Shown: positions 12,300 to 48,272, counted from the first letter of the stretch. The stretch is DNA of 64,000 nt from Parcubacteria group bacterium Gr01-1014_13 (GCA_007376295.1 VMGB01000001.1:349969-413968), one strand, 5' to 3'. Program-made: numbers and translations. The notes: generated by a model from the letters alone, not told the origin.

Positions 12300-12704
12300 T
12301 TATTTTAGAGTTACTTTGCCGCCAGCTTCTTCAATCTTCTTTTTCATAGCTTCAGCATCTTCTTTCTTTACGCCTTCTTTAACCATCTTAGGAGCGCCAT
12401 CTACTAAAGCTTTAGCATCTGCCAAACCTAAACCGGTTACTTCTTTTACAGCTTTGATCACATTGATCTTGCTAGCACCGGCATCGGTAAGCTCAACATT
12501 GAACTCAGTTTTTTCCTCAGCGGCAGCAGCTGCGCCTCCGGCAGCTGGAGCAGCCATCATCATGGCTGGAGCAGCGGCAGAAACGCCGAATTTTTCTTCC
12601 AAAACCTTTACCAATTCGGAAAGGTCTAGAACAGACATTTTTTCAACTTCTTCTACAAGGCTTTTAAACTTTGCAGGGACTTCTACTTTATTTTCTTCGG
12701 TCAT
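12300..12704 (-). CDS. rplL: 50S ribosomal protein L7/L12
   Basis: Canonical L12: N-terminal dimerisation region, Ala-rich hinge, C-terminal domain ([24 protein letters not shown]...GGKVTLK). Start taken at the internal ATG (MTEENK), not the longer track ORF. Confidence 0.9.
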
Positions 12705-12714
12705 ATATTTATTA

Positions 12715-13239
12715 TTAAGCTTTTGATTTAGCAATATTATTAAGTACACCTACTAAACCGCGCAAATTTCCAGCCAGTACATTTACGAAACCAGAAACAG
12801 GGCTGTTGAGAGAGCCAACTAATCTGCCTAGCAATTCTTGTTTGCTTGGCAAACTGGCCAAACTCTTTACTGCGGAAACGTCTACGAATTTACCTTCCAA
12901 TACACCACCGAATATTTTTAATATTTCGTGAGTTTTGGCAAAAGTGTTTACTACTCTGGCAGCCGATACTTCGTCTCCCAAAGCCATAAAGGTAGCCACA
13001 CCACCGGCGAAAACCTTTGGATCAATATCTTTTAATCCCACGTCTTCACAAGCGCGCTTTACCAAAGTCTTTTTGGCAGCTACTACTTTAATATCATTTT
13101 TGCGGCATTCGCGTCGCAGTTCTTCTGCTTCAGAAACTTTTAAACCTTGAAAATTGGCAAAAACTACGGCTTTAGCGGCTCGCAGTCCGTCTTCCAAAGA
13201 TTTAATCGTTTCTTGTTTTTGTTGTTTTGATTTAGGCAT
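12715..13239 (-). CDS. rplJ: 50S ribosomal protein L10
   Basis: L10 family ([43 protein letters not shown]...). Start at the ATG at 13237-13239 preferred over the upstream GTG. 10-nt spacer to rplL. Confidence 0.85.
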
Positions 13240-13449
13240 ATAAAATAAAAAATCTGTGTGTTCCACAGAATTCTAGTACAAATCGACCTAACAGGCTAAA
13301 ATTGCCCTTTATTTGCACCTCGGCAGGAAATTAAGTCTTGCGACACCTGCTGTCTATGGTTGAATAGATAATATAATATCTGTGGATAAATGTCAAGGGG
13401 TTGATTTATAATAAAAGGCCGGTAAACATTTATATTTTATCGACCTTAC

Positions 13450-13740
13450 CTAACCCCGAAATTTATAAAATAGCTTCTTTAATTCTATCATCTCATTATG
13501 AAGATCATCACACTCTTCATCGGTAAGTACCGCTACAGCGTCTATATCAGGTACACTCCCTAGAGGAATTGAATCTGTCTTATGCGAACCCAAACGATGG
13601 AGTTTCTTCCAAAATTCGTCTAGTTTTTCCCAAACTAAGAATACTTCCTCATCGCTAATATCCATTTTACATCCCCAAAAACCAGGAAAAATGATCAAAA
13701 ATTCTTCTCTAATCTCTTTAACCGTAGTAGGCATGTTCAC
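13450..13740 (-). CDS. hypothetical small protein
   Basis: 96 aa, host-like composition, no recognisable domain. Confidence 0.35.
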   Translation of the reverse strand: MNMPTTVKEIREEFLIIFPGFWGCKMDISDEEVFLVWEKLDEFWKKLHRLGSHKTDSIPLGSVPDIDAVAVLTDEECDDLHNEMIELKKLFYKFRG

Positions 13741-13819
13741 CTCCTTTGGTTACCAACCCGTAATTGGGTTAACAGACTATACCAGTATAGAACCTCTCTT
13801 GTCAACTGGTACAGAGGGG

Positions 13820-13848
13820 TTGACAAAGACTAGTTTTTATGCTATGAT
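13820..13848 (+). promoter_or_regulatory. sigma70-type promoter (TTGACA-17-TATGAT) for the foreign-GC ORF
   Basis: ggTTGACAaagactagtttttatgcTATGAT; the -35 hexamer is consensus. A strong SD (AAGGGA) lies 6 nt before the ATG at 13900. Confidence 0.55.
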
Positions 13849-13899
13849 GTGACCTACATTTGGTATACCGACCAAAAAACACCAACAGAAAGGGATAAA

Positions 13900-14454
13900 A
13901 TGTCGATGTCGCTTTTGGTCCAGTATGAAGAGGACCTAGAGTCCAAACGGGAAGAAGTCTACTGCCAGCTCAAAAAGCTGGTGAAGAATCTGCCCATGTA
14001 CTTGAGCGCAACCACCAAGAGAGCGCTTCGGATTCACTTCGACAACTTCGACTTCGGGTATCAGTGGACCGAAGACGGCGAAGAGCTGATCCAGAAAGCT
14101 CGCATGGAACAGATGGCGACGGCAGAACGCTGGAAACGCTACGAAGAATTCGAACTGTTTGAAGACGAGCCCTGGATCGATGACCAGACGAAGAAGCTCT
14201 GGGGTTTCGCCGAGTACTGGGAGAACAAATTCGATCAGGAGACCATCAACGCCTGCAGGTTGAAGAAGGATCTCGCCTTTGAGTACGGAAGCATCCTCGT
14301 TCTGGAGAAGGCTTCTGGCAAAACCTACCATCGTAACGGTATCAAGCGCGATAAGACCGAGTTCTGGAACCGTCCCCAGCCGACTAGACGGCGACAGATC
14401 AAACTGCACAAAAAGATGCAGCGACGCCAGAACGACAATCAGCCTCAGGAGTAA
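13900..14454 (+). CDS. hypothetical protein of foreign base composition (acidic N-terminal half, basic C-terminal tail)
   Basis: 184 aa. By eye the coding region is ~50% GC, with CTG/GAG/AAG/CGC-rich codon use, against ~37% GC in its neighbours. Start assigned to the SD-preceded ATG at 13900 (the track ORF starts at 13849). No recognisable family. Confidence 0.55.
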   Translation: MSMSLLVQYEEDLESKREEVYCQLKKLVKNLPMYLSATTKRALRIHFDNFDFGYQWTEDGEELIQKARMEQMATAERWKRYEEFELFEDEPWIDDQTKKLWGFAEYWENKFDQETINACRLKKDLAFEYGSILVLEKASGKTYHRNGIKRDKTEFWNRPQPTRRRQIKLHKKMQRRQNDNQPQE

Positions 14455-14475
14455 CCACAACGGATGCTCCACTCA

Positions 14476-14510
14476 CCCGCCAAGACCACCTAGGTCGAAG
14501 CGGGTTTTTT
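14476..14510 (+). terminator. rho-independent terminator (CCCGC...GCGGG + T6)
   Basis: cCCCGCcaagaccacctaggtcgaaGCGGGtttttt, directly after the stop of the 13900 ORF. Confidence 0.5.
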
Positions 14511-14523
14511 AATTATACCAAGG

Positions 14524-14552
14524 TTGACAAATAGCTCGTTTTATACTATCTT
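14524..14552 (+). promoter_or_regulatory. sigma70-type promoter (TTGACA-17-TATCTT), paralogous to the 13820 promoter
   Basis: ggTTGACAAAtagctcgttttatacTATCTT; the GGTTGACAAA and GTTTTAT.CTAT blocks are shared with the promoter at 13818-13848. SD AAGGAG lies 8 nt before the ATG. Confidence 0.5.
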
Positions 14553-14572: not shown

Positions 14573-14866
14573 ATGGAAAAGACGCCCTATAACCCGGATG
14601 AAGACGAAAATCTCTTTGACAACTCAATGAATGCATTTTGTTTGATCTTGAGACAACTTGTTTCTCGCAACAAAAACCTCCGTAGCCAACTCTCTGATCT
14701 ATCCAGGAAACAAAAAAATGGCATATCTGCTTCCACAAAAAAAGAAATCTATAACCACCTCCTTGAAGATGATATCTGCAATGACGAGTGGTTCCAAGAT
14801 GGCAAGTGCCTACTACTAAAAGCCAAAAAAGAGGCCAAATCAAAAACCAAAAAGAGACGAAAATAA
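14573..14866 (+). CDS. hypothetical small protein with Lys-rich C-terminus
   Basis: 97 aa, host-like GC, perfect SD (AAGGAGT). C-terminal tail KAKKEAKSKTKKRRK. Confidence 0.45.
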   Translation: MEKTPYNPDEDENLFDNSMNAFCLILRQLVSRNKNLRSQLSDLSRKQKNGISASTKKEIYNHLLEDDICNDEWFQDGKCLLLKAKKEAKSKTKKRRK

Positions 14867-14875
14867 TGGCACGCG

Positions 14876-14906
14876 CCCGCCAACTGCAAAGTTTAGCGGG
14901 TTTTTT
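14876..14906 (+). terminator. rho-independent terminator (CCCGC...GCGGG + T6), paralogous to the 14476 terminator
   Basis: gCCCGCcaactgcaaagtttaGCGGGtttttt shares CCCGCCAA and AGCGGGTTTTTTA with the terminator at 14476-14510. Confidence 0.45.
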
Positions 14907-15447
14907 ATTTTCTACCAAGAAGTCTTGCCAAAAAACCTGGTTTTTTAAATTCTAAAGGTTTAACTATCATTGTTTTGTTTGCGTCTCCTGATTGGCTGTG
15001 TTTAAGATTTTCAAGCTTCTCCTCAAGATCTCTTAATCTTTCAACCGCATCTGTATCGCCATAATTTTGCTCAACATCAAAGCGAGCGCCATCTATTTGT
15101 TTTTCCAATTCGTCATAAGCAGAGATATTCTCTCTGACCAAACGAGCTTCTTCACCCATTAAATTCATTACCGGATTGGTTGATCTTGCTTTCGCTTGAT
15201 CAAACTCTACATCTGTAATTTGCTGACGCAAAATTGCCAATTCATCTTTGTCATCTTGGGTTAACTGCTCCCCTTTTCTCAATACTGGCTTTGACTCTTC
15301 TGCCTTTCTCTTAAACTCCTCAGCTTTTCTTTGTATCTCCGCAGTTTCCTCCGGAGAAAAAATTACAGCGTTGAATCGTTCTCGTTTTTTTGCTCCAAAC
15401 CCATAATTTGTTTCTGCCGGAATAAATTTTGGTTGTTTGTCGGCCAT
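14905..15447 (-). CDS. hypothetical coiled-coil protein
   Basis: 180 aa, highly charged with heptad-like pattern (EEFKRKAEESK, LRDLEEKLENLKH). No domain assignment. Confidence 0.4.
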   Translation of the reverse strand: MADKQPKFIPAETNYGFGAKKRERFNAVIFSPEETAEIQRKAEEFKRKAEESKPVLRKGEQLTQDDKDELAILRQQITDVEFDQAKARSTNPVMNLMGEEARLVRENISAYDELEKQIDGARFDVEQNYGDTDAVERLRDLEEKLENLKHSQSGDANKTMIVKPLEFKKPGFLARLLGRK

Positions 15448-18668: not shown

Positions 18669-18703
18669 TGTCCAACTCCTTTTTGTATGGGAATTTTACC
18701 CAG

Positions 18704-18776
18704 TCAGGCTAGCGGGACTTGAACCCGCGGCCTCATGCACCCCATGCATGCGCGATACCAACTTCGCCATAGCCTG
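18704..18776 (-). tRNA. tRNA-Pro (anticodon GGG)
   Basis: Hand-folded cloverleaf on the minus strand: acceptor CAGGCTA/TAGCCTG, D-stem GCGA/TCGC, anticodon stem CATGC/GCATG with loop AUGGGGU (G37), T-arm GCGGG-TTCAAGT-CCCGC, discriminator A. CCA is not encoded. Confidence 0.85.
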
Positions 18777-46739: not shown

Positions 46740-48272
46740 ATGTCGAGACTACAACCAAAAATTCTTTTGGTTTACCCGCCTAACCAGCTGATGGCTATTG
46801 AAATGCCCCGGCCGGACGGTTCGCTCGGCCCATTGTACCTCAGCGGCGCTCTTCGCGACGCAGGGTTTGATGTTGATCTACTGGACGCTTCTGTCGGTAC
46901 AAACGAAGATAAGCTCAGTGATACGTTCCACAACCGAGTTCTCTTGCCGAACGGTCTAACCCGTATCGGCATGACCCCGGATCGCCTGCGGGAATACTTC
47001 GCCAAAGGCAACTTTGATATCGTAGGTATTAGCAGTAACTTCACCCCCCAGACCAAAATGGCTCTGGAGGTGGCAGGCATTGCTAAAGAAGTAAACCCCG
47101 AAACTCTAGTTATTGCGGGTGGTGTCAATGCCCGCGCACTTTCGGATCGTTTCCTAGCGAGTCGTTTGGTGGACGTGGTCATCCTCACCGAAGGTGAAAA
47201 AATCATCGTCGACCTGGCTCGTGCCTGGCAACAAAACACGTCGTTTGACAATGTAAATGGTATTAAATACTTGCGCACGGGATTCCCGGTGACTAGGCCA
47301 GTAACTCCGGAATTAATCTCGGATAATCTGGACAGTCTACCGATTCCAGCCTGGGATCTTCTACCACATGCCAAATACGACGAAATCAATAGTCCGCATG
47401 GTAGTATCATTAGCAGTCAGAAGCGGCGTTACGCCCCTATCATGACCTCGCGCGGCTGTCCGTTCCGCTGCGCATACTGCCACATTAGTGAAGAAAAAGA
47501 GGCCGGCTCCTTCACAGGCGATATCGGCTCATTGCGACTCAAATCGATTGATCGCGTTATGGAGGAACTAAAAAAATTACTCGCGCTTGGAGTAACCCAC
47601 CTCTATATCGAAGACGACAGTCTTCTCGCCAAAAAAGCTCGCATCAAAGATCTTTTTCATCGCCTTACCGGCCTTGGACTGAAGATTAGCGGTGTGAACG
47701 GCGTAAATCTAGTCCACTTTGGTATCCCGACTACAAACGGACGGCTAAAACCAGACGTTGGGTATCTGGAAATCCTAAAGGGTGCTGGATTTGATGAGAT
47801 TGTCTTCCCGGTAGAATCCGGAAATCAACGGATTCTTGATAAATACGCTACGTCTAAACTGCCTCTGGATAAACTTGATGTCATCCAACTCGTGCGCGAT
47901 GCGGTGGAAGTCGGAATTACCTGTCCAGTCAATATGATGGTTGGGTTCCCCGACGAAACTAAAGCCGAGATGAATGAGAGTGTTGAGCTGGCAAAGAAAC
48001 TCATCGATGCTGGTGCTCGATACGTAACGTTCTTTATTCCTATTCCGTTCCCCGGAAGCAAGCTATACCGTATGGCTATCGACGGGGGCCACTTGTCAGC
48101 TGATTTCGATCCGGACACGATGAATTGGAAAAATGCTGTCATGCAAAATACGACGGTGCCACCGGAGGAAGTGGTGGAATTCCGCGATTGGGCGTGGGAA
48201 ACAGTAAATAGCGAAGACTATAAGAAGAAACGTAAAGAAAGAGAAATTGGCGATCAGCGCTTTGCAAAATAA
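46740..48272 (+). CDS. B12-binding radical SAM enzyme (class B, cobalamin-dependent radical SAM methylase family)
   Basis: 510 aa with an N-terminal B12-binding-like Rossmann domain and a CxxxCxxC cluster motif (SRGCPFRCAYCH). The ORF is clearly GC-enriched (~50%) relative to flanking genes. Confidence 0.85.
   Translation: MSRLQPKILLVYPPNQLMAIEMPRPDGSLGPLYLSGALRDAGFDVDLLDASVGTNEDKLSDTFHNRVLLPNGLTRIGMTPDRLREYFAKGNFDIVGISSNFTPQTKMALEVAGIAKEVNPETLVIAGGVNARALSDRFLASRLVDVVILTEGEKIIVDLARAWQQNTSFDNVNGIKYLRTGFPVTRPVTPELISDNLDSLPIPAWDLLPHAKYDEINSPHGSIISSQKRRYAPIMTSRGCPFRCAYCHISEEKEAGSFTGDIGSLRLKSIDRVMEELKKLLALGVTHLYIEDDSLLAKKARIKDLFHRLTGLGLKISGVNGVNLVHFGIPTTNGRLKPDVGYLEILKGAGFDEIVFPVESGNQRILDKYATSKLPLDKLDVIQLVRDAVEVGITCPVNMMVGFPDETKAEMNESVELAKKLIDAGARYVTFFIPIPFPGSKLYRMAIDGGHLSADFDPDTMNWKNAVMQNTTVPPEEVVEFRDWAWETVNSEDYKKKRKEREIGDQRFAK

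Follow-up and report, generated by a model that had tools for sequence, protein, structure and literature searches.

Within a 64,000-nucleotide stretch of the genome of Parcubacteria group bacterium Gr01-1014_13 (GCA_007376295.1, VMGB01000001.1:349969-413968; hereafter the window, with positions counted from its first nucleotide), we analysed a small plus-strand gene at 13900–14454, an open frame of 184 amino acids (aa) annotated as the hypothetical protein G01um101413_371, whose coding sequence is far richer in G and C than its surroundings. Comparison with its relatives shows that GC-rich codon usage characterises this transcription unit throughout the family and is not a foreign relic. The explanation we favour, with a probability of roughly 0.55, is that this is a vertically inherited, clade-specific Parcubacteria protein gene, and that a fixation bias, most likely acting through the mRNA, keeps its transcript GC-rich. 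That the composition is a maintained trait, and not a recently foreign one, we hold with considerable confidence; the mRNA-level mechanism, taken by itself, is a tentative proposal.

At 0.521, the GC content of the open reading frame (ORF) exceeds the 0.387 of the window (z = 4.3 among all 555-nt windows), and the GC-richest 555-nt stretch of the 64 kb lies here, so that an initial sequence-only reading, which had put the ORF at ~50% GC and called it foreign-looking, was right about the anomaly itself. By codon position the GC content is 0.53, 0.31 and 0.72 (GC1, GC2 and GC3); this GC3 is the highest in the window, where 60 ORFs of at least 150 aa have a mean of 0.36 (standard deviation 0.065). 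The anomaly lies at synonymous sites, GC2 being if anything below the 0.35 of neighbouring genes. CAG is used 13 times and CAA never, ATC six times against a single ATT and no ATA, and AAG (11), GAG (11), CTG (6) and CGC (5) are common, as the same reading had listed, although GGC, which it had also named, occurs just twice. The adjoining, highly expressed rplJ and rplL genes have a GC3 of 0.30–0.33, so the bias is not of the kind that accompanies high expression.

Word-indexed searches recovered a single relative of the protein (55% identity) and an exhaustive HMMER search of 1.84 billion representatives only nine (E-values 8e-60 to 9e-4, 145–202 aa), which points to a tiny orphan family of around ten proteins. 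The contigs carrying the relatives were retrieved and numbered L001–L013, giving 11 loci with genomic context, the window and 10 further assemblies. At every locus with enough flank the gene order is the same: a ~760-aa protein (plus strand), rplL and rplJ (both minus) with the L10 leader, the target gene (plus), a small fast-evolving hypothetical gene (minus), an AA-kinase-family gene (minus), a holin-like gene and an M50 peptidase gene. The divergent operon that anchors this synteny lies on the minus strand of the window, with rplL at ~12300–12704, rplJ at ~12715–13239 and the L10 leader at 13238–13377 (Rfam RF00557, 72.8 bits). The target gene diverges from the rplJ–rplL promoter and L10 leader in 11 of 11 loci, and the leader is found directly upstream on the opposite strand even on contigs of 1–2 kb (leader in L001, L003, L004 and L010). 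In L001, L002, L005 and L010 a palindrome, CTTGACAATTGTCAAG, sets the −35 boxes of the target gene and rplJ back-to-back. The junction between rplJ and the AA-kinase gene is occupied by the target gene in all 10 other assemblies found, with no sign of a patchy distribution.

Outside these assemblies the family was not encountered. IMG/VR, a scan of JGI contigs, the INPHARED phages and the PLSDB plasmids held no relatives, 185,579 species genomes held none beyond one of the same metagenome-assembled genomes, and wider searches of genome, metagenome and viral contigs added nothing further; in these collections and the 1.84 billion representatives there was no homologue outside the clade, nor in any GC-rich, viral or plasmid source. 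The flanks are housekeeping genes and include no mobility genes, and in the literature we found no account of the gene, nor of comparable cases in the candidate phyla radiation (CPR). The gene is a clade-restricted, syntenic and core-gene-like element, not cargo. The sequence-only reading had suggested that a foreign ORF, possibly of phage origin or a toxin or anti-defence gene, had recently been captured and placed under native expression signals, and an atypical composition, a small orphan ORF and a native-looking promoter and terminator are all consistent with such an event. However, orthologues of the same composition sit at the same site, in identical synteny, in 10 other assemblies, an observation of the kind that the sequence-only reading had itself named as refuting capture, and no significant match was obtained in PHROGs, PADLOC (single-member chance matches only), IMG/VR, INPHARED or PLSDB (no tblastn hits in either) or BFVD; we regard recent capture as having next to no probability.

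Instead, the composition behaves as a trait of the family. GC3 is 0.67–0.93 in the target gene at 11 of 11 loci against 0.22–0.50 in the neighbours, GC2 is not raised (0.29–0.41), and no other ORF reaches as high a GC3 in any of the five genomes sampled (the 64 kb of the window and four stretches of 14–20 kb). Pooled over the family, every amino-acid family is shifted to C- or G-ending codons, with relative usage in the family and its neighbours of 0.88 vs. 0.20 for ATC, 0.89 vs. 0.28 for CAG, 0.77 vs. 0.22 for AAG, 0.30 vs. 0.04 for CTC and 0 vs. 0.30 for ATA. Over the same span the synonymous sites have been largely replaced. Identity at four-fold sites is 0.29–0.44 in the 760-aa neighbour, where composition alone gives ~0.27 by chance, and ~0.36–0.38 between distant pairs of the target gene, where chance gives ~0.32; C and G have exchanged at conserved four-fold sites of the target gene, and its synonymous divergence (dS) between the window and L001 is 0.87, within the 0.56–1.14 of the neighbours. 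The sequence has thus turned over while the composition stayed. Third-position G or C was lost between the window and L001 at a frequency of 0.26 in the target gene and 0.47 in the neighbours (Fisher p = 9e-4), and in the reverse direction at 0.06 and 0.38 (Fisher p = 3e-7). Under a crude model of neutral decay an ancestral GC3 of 0.90 would have fallen to ~0.45–0.62 by now, and amelioration at this neutral rate is not seen, third-position G and C having been retained. Near-saturated four-fold sites, retained G and C and high GC3 everywhere therefore indicate a persistent GC-favouring fixation bias and not slow amelioration. The alternative that the sequence-only reading had set beside foreign capture, strong selection on composition, gains support from the conserved GC3 and the third-position retention.

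Protein divergence, by comparison with neighbouring genes, is not clock-like: L007 and L011 share 34% identity in the target protein and 76% in a neighbour, and L010 and the window share 35% in the target protein and 94% in rplJ. This could reflect episodic fast evolution or the exchange of alleles, and such incongruence is also what would be expected had the unit been acquired in an ancient transfer and ameliorated slowly, or been replaced repeatedly as a cassette from a GC-rich reservoir by way of its conserved flanks. The whole unit is atypical, its 3′ spacer included, and if the low synonymous rates of rplJ are applied, the crude decay ends at ~0.62–0.66, near the lowest GC3 observed. Against this, a GC3 of at least 0.67 persists in 11 of 11 loci despite four-fold sites close to saturation, G and C are retained more than in the neighbours, the searches revealed no homologue outside the syntenic position that could represent a donor, the junctions lack mobility genes, and, as described below, the GC block is bounded by the transcription start and terminator, not by arbitrary recombination junctions. 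We consider ancient transfer or cassette replacement improbable, at perhaps the level of an outside chance.

The position of the GC block along the locus is informative as to the level at which the bias acts. In the window the gene is preceded by a sigma-70-type promoter at 13820–13848 (plus; TTGACA-17-TATGAT, with a TG-extended −10 and 11 of 12 consensus matches), the position of which is kept across the family, and by a 5′ untranslated region (UTR) at 13849–13899 (plus) with a Shine–Dalgarno (SD) sequence, AAGGGA, at 13890–13895. Downstream, a C-rich untranslated spacer (14455–14474, plus) separates the stop codon from an intrinsic terminator (14475–14511, plus), made of a hairpin with an internal loop (14475–14505) followed by U6; the folding energy of the hairpin is −18.7 kcal/mol (z = −3.3), and the terminator is conserved in relatives, in L001 at the DNA level. 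Promoter, SD and terminator had all been recognised from the sequence alone and hold up here. Averaged over the 11 loci, GC rises from 0.28 in the promoter bin to 0.45–0.60 in the transcript and 0.69 in the terminator, then drops to 0.18 in the T-tract: the GC block begins at the transcription start and stops at the terminator.

Within the transcript, GC3 is uniformly high along the coding sequence (0.65–0.81), a near-neutral linker included, and only the first 30 nt of the coding sequence are less GC-rich (0.33–0.53), in keeping with initiation requiring an open start. Over the 60 nt ahead of the start codon the GC content is 0.38–0.60, against 0.29 ± 0.07 for 38 other genes. The 3′ spacer between stop codon and terminator stem, 14–34 nt long, has 0.60 GC, 0.44 C and 0.14 T (10 members pooled). 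The spacer, which directly follows the stop codon, contains a semi-conserved CAACG/CAGCG motif (CAACG in the window spacer at 14455–14474, with equivalents in L001–L013), and inspection by eye gave no consistent complementarity between the spacer and the SD or leader. Most relatives' transcripts open with two small hairpins, GTCGT-TTT-GCGAC and CCATACCA-TTT-TGGTATGG, followed by a strong SD (AAGGAGAAGG), and among nine relatives 5 of the 11 predicted hairpin pairs show compensatory changes. The description of promoter and 5′ UTR as AT-rich in the sequence-only reading was true of the window, but in most relatives the 5′ UTR, and the 3′ spacer too, are GC-enriched.

Because untranslated parts are GC-rich too, a force at the level of the transcript explains the pattern better than one based on tRNAs. 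Selection in translation would act through rare G- or C-ending codons, their tRNAs or Watson–Crick G34:C3 decoding, a 'private lane' that might serve robust, accurate or condition-dependent translation, much as in regulation by rare codons or through tRNA modification. Two-fold boxes indeed show the strongest shift, from NNU to NNC (ATC 0.88, AAC 0.80, TTC 0.78), those to CAG and AAG are also strong, C exceeds G in most four-fold boxes, and the window encodes a tRNA-Pro(GGG) reading CCC. On the other hand, NNC and NNU are read by one shared tRNA, so the supply of isoacceptors cannot account for that part of the shift, and the neighbouring ribosomal protein genes do not use such codons (GC3 0.30–0.43). 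Translational selection therefore seems to us unlikely, albeit the least unlikely of the competing explanations. The tRNA in question, at 18703–18776 (minus), is the only one in the 64 kb and decodes CCC and CCU; CCC is the family's favoured proline codon (0.56 vs. 0.18 in neighbours), which may be coincidence.

A GC island between promoter and terminator in an AT-rich genome is, as a rule of thumb in screens for non-coding RNA, typically a structural RNA gene, and the transcript could double as a structured functional RNA whose folding the GC content serves. The coding sequence folds at −0.33 kcal/mol per nt against approximately −0.25 in neighbours, and the 5′ hairpins of relatives covary. 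However, a scan with Rfam returned only the L10 leader and the tRNA, the synonymous sites are saturated, with no conserved blocks beyond the protein motifs, and the minimum free energy (MFE) z-scores are no better than those of control genes, which makes a dual-function RNA very improbable. A specific RNA structure under selection found no support in the same comparison with control neighbours; bulk stability is therefore a plausible target of selection, a specific fold less so. Avoidance of motifs, such as the ACA sites of toxins, was likewise rejected, ACA being slightly enriched, and once codon usage is accounted for, depletion is confined to SD-like motifs (AGGA, GAGG, GGAGG). A broader form of selection on the RNA itself would hold this one unit GC-rich in an AT-rich, reduced CPR genome, either because the transcript must escape AU-directed RNA decay or an RNA-binding activity, which its own basic-tailed product might supply (self-avoidance), or because it doubles as a structured RNA; this reading is in our estimate about as doubtful as translational selection, or slightly more so.

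A tandem partial paralogue immediately downstream provides a control for the effect of position. It occupies 14573–14866 (plus) and encodes 97 aa, with the N-domain motif (STKKEIYNHL...EWFQDGKCLLLKAKKE) and a short basic tail; its promoter at 14524–14552 (plus; TTGACA-17-TATCTT) aligns with that of the target gene, and its terminator is similar in design. It has diverged from the family, in which it is placed by profile comparison (hhalign against the family profile, probability 96.8%, E = 2.8e-10) and by BLASTP (E = 3e-5), and protein searches found it in this genome only. GC3 is 0.43 in the paralogue against 0.74 in the aligned part of the target gene, so that position alone does not make a gene GC-rich here: once freed of the target's constraint, a copy drifts to native composition.

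The decay of a single-genome paralogue, which lacks recombination partners, would also follow from GC-biased gene conversion at a local recombination hotspot, a process that raises GC at the weakly constrained sites of a unit. Synonymous and untranslated sites are affected alike, as conversion would have it, and the fast, non-clock-like evolution of the protein is consistent with frequent exchange. Yet there is no GC enrichment in the adjacent rplJ or the promoter, which conversion tracts should cover, such tracts would not be expected to leave sharp boundaries that follow the transcript, and the shift of +35 to +55 GC3 points is, to our knowledge, far larger than the effects of the process in bacteria. 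We think it very unlikely, a little less probable than ancient transfer.

Under the favoured explanation of a GC-rich, vertically inherited transcript, a GC-favouring fixation bias holds the unit against the AT-biased mutation pressure that shaped every neighbour. A more paired, GC-rich transcript would presumably be more stable and longer-lived in a cell where other mRNAs are AU-rich; in most relatives it would carry 5′-proximal hairpins and a strong SD at its start and a strong terminator at its end, and translation initiation would keep the first ~10 codons less GC-rich. Duplication in this genome would then have produced a truncated copy that lost the constraint and drifted to native composition. 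Several observations weigh against this explanation. The 5′ UTR of the window is AT-rich, has lost the first hairpin and folds no better than shuffled sequences (z = −0.17), and the evidence from UTR composition is partly confounded, hairpins and SD sequences being GC-rich by nature. Measured against synonymous-codon shuffles, the family's MFE z-scores lie between +0.8 and −3.5 (mean ~−1.8), no stronger than those of control neighbours, which lie between +0.7 and −4.3. The retention test compares one sequence pair, and four-fold sites number 13–37 per pair; divergence data alone cannot tell selection from GC-biased gene conversion, and the non-clock-like divergence of the protein could leave room for allele exchange.

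The target is a genuine protein-coding frame. The ratio of nonsynonymous to synonymous divergence (dN/dS) is 0.29–0.54 overall; the N-domain has 0.2–0.5, the linker ~1 and the basic tail ~0.2, and conservation is 0.71, 0.72 and 0.61 at codon positions 1, 2 and 3, lowest at the third. An antisense ORF of 178 aa spans 13936–14472 (minus), which the sequence-only reading had set aside as an artefact of composition, and our analysis agrees. The antisense frame holds 0–4 stops in family members, conservation would be lowest at its first codon position, a pattern that fits the sense frame, and the usage of CTA and TCA combined is 0.086, no clear departure from the 0.107 of A-ending codons in other four-fold boxes. 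As the codons that would generate antisense stops are no rarer than other A-ending codons, the antisense ORF is a by-product of codon usage, namely of the scarcity of TTA, CTA and TCA, and an antisense gene was ruled out on these grounds. Alternative sense frames were also rejected, having many stops in all members except L010.

The protein has an acidic N-terminal part and a basic C-terminal tail, as had been predicted (isoelectric point 4.7 for residues 1–135 and 11.3 for residues 136–184; the tail quoted in that prediction is present), arranged as an acidic helical N-domain (~1–110), a fast-evolving linker (~111–143) and a conserved basic tail, HRxGxKRDKTEFWxRPxPTRR...QPQE. An AlphaFold2 (AF2) model built on an 11-sequence alignment (predicted local distance difference test, pLDDT, 73; predicted template modelling score, pTM, 0.40) is all-helical, with helices at residues 3–29, 37–48, 54–88, 95–137 and 163–179 and low confidence in the linker. 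The prior impression of a protein with no recognisable domain is upheld: no family was found in Pfam, PHROGs (best E = 0.14), NCBIfam, PADLOC or PDB sequences, and although the structure prediction called for earlier did yield a helical model, it gave no fold assignment, a Foldseek search of PDB and BFVD returning nothing below E = 0.3 (best BFVD E = 0.34). From its charge layout and its position back-to-back with the rplJL promoter, the protein is probably nucleic-acid- or ribosome-associated. A resemblance by eye between the tail, EFWNRPQPTRRR, and bS21, EFYEKPTTERKR, was discarded, as hhalign of Escherichia coli S21 against the family profile gave a probability of 0.4% and there was no Pfam hit.

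Several features of the family records bear on how they should be read. L007, L008 and L009 differ at one base over 7 kb. L005/L012 (CAZXML010000001.1, GCA_964641245.1) are labelled 'uncultured Gammaproteobacteria bacterium', but the locus has the gene order of the window and 89–93% identity in rplJ/rplL, and the label looks wrong. The database starts of P0006, P0007, P0008, P0010 and P0011 (L003, L004, L007, L011 and L013) lie 19–45 codons too early, so that the conserved hairpins of the 5′ leader are translated into extra residues; the true start codon is the ATG after GGAG (MS[LF]SL... or M[EK]RLED...). Three members, L003 220–570, L013 122–559 and L006 458–934, either miss the long linker and the HRxGxKRDKTEFW tail or carry a tail that has diverged, and end in a short basic stretch in a layout like that of the 97-aa paralogue of the window, with a GC3 of 0.71–0.83; they may be natural short isoforms, or products of frameshift or assembly errors.

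Compared with the other loci, the window has ~400 bp of extra sequence (13397–13805) separating the rplJ leader from the target promoter. It holds a 96-aa ORF at 13450–13740 (minus) with its own SD and a strong promoter at 13805–13776 (TTGACA-18-TATAGT), and the L10 leader has a second consensus promoter at 13396–13368; an ancestral back-to-back promoter pair has apparently been split by an insertion, with one promoter duplicated. Neither Pfam nor PHROGs matches the 96-aa ORF, which bears no relation to the target family. The convergent downstream gene at 14905–15447 (minus), with orthologues such as L001 3234–3806, encodes an acidic, coiled-coil-type protein of 110–190 aa and is an orphan and fast-evolving (39% identity between window and L001, dN/dS 0.54), with a fully native composition (GC3 0.29). 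Apart from the target, GC is elevated in a single gene of the window, a radical-SAM-like gene at 46740–48272 (plus, 510 aa), set among sugar-modifying and glycosyltransferase-like genes, in a region (47001–48000) of 47–50% GC. Its GC1, GC2 and GC3 are 0.58, 0.39 and 0.51, a shift at all codon positions that is ordinary for transferred genes and contrasts with that of the target gene.

Atypical GC content and codon usage are routinely read as horizontal transfer, and the gene described here is a clean counter-example, having kept an excess of 35–55 GC3 points through synonymous saturation in every sampled lineage. If the broader form of selection on the RNA itself is true, it would be a gene-sized natural example of strong selection on synonymous GC, with a relaxed paralogue as its control; if the cause is selection on the transcript, the locus would offer a test case for why G and C are favoured against AT-biased mutation in bacteria, with natural comparisons in the orthologues of several genomes, the relaxed paralogue and the AT-rich ribosomal genes that share its promoter region. 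It also brings to notice an uncharacterised family, fixed beside the rplJL promoter in a clade of Parcubacteria, which may be ribosome- or RNA-associated.

The locus shares individual features with several known systems. Long-lived bacterial mRNAs carry 5′ stabilisers, such as the ompA 5′ hairpin, the Bacillus STAB-SD and aprE leaders, and most relatives of the target gene are alike in having hairpins a few nucleotides from the predicted 5′ end, a strong SD and a strong terminator; the window leader differs, its first hairpin being missing and the leader not significantly structured. In regulation by rare codons coupled to tRNAs, as in the bldA/TTA system of Streptomyces and in codon-biased stress regulons, codon usage also runs opposite to the genome norm, but in the target gene all codon families shift and untranslated regions with them, and no tRNA partner was found, the tRNA of the window being the Pro(GGG) described above. 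Structural RNA genes share with it a GC island bounded by a promoter and an intrinsic terminator, whereas the target gene has a period-3 composition, dN/dS below 1, conserved protein motifs, no Rfam family and, relative to control genes, no excess folding energy over synonymous shuffles. Horizontally acquired ORFans and islets are likewise small orphan ORFs of strongly deviant GC and codon usage, and the target gene is unlike them in its fixed synteny (11 of 11 loci), its persistence past synonymous saturation, its GC2, which is not raised, and its lack of a donor or mobility genes. A further parallel is the genome-wide bias towards GC: mutation in bacteria is AT-biased, and selection, or a bias resembling it, can favour GC (Hershberg & Petrov 2010, PMC2936535; Hildebrand et al. 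2010, PMC2936529), so that there, as in the target gene, fixation of G and C at synonymous sites opposes AT mutation. The published effect is weak and genome-wide, however, whilst the effect seen here is confined to a single unit and is very large (GC3 0.67–0.93 against ~0.35).

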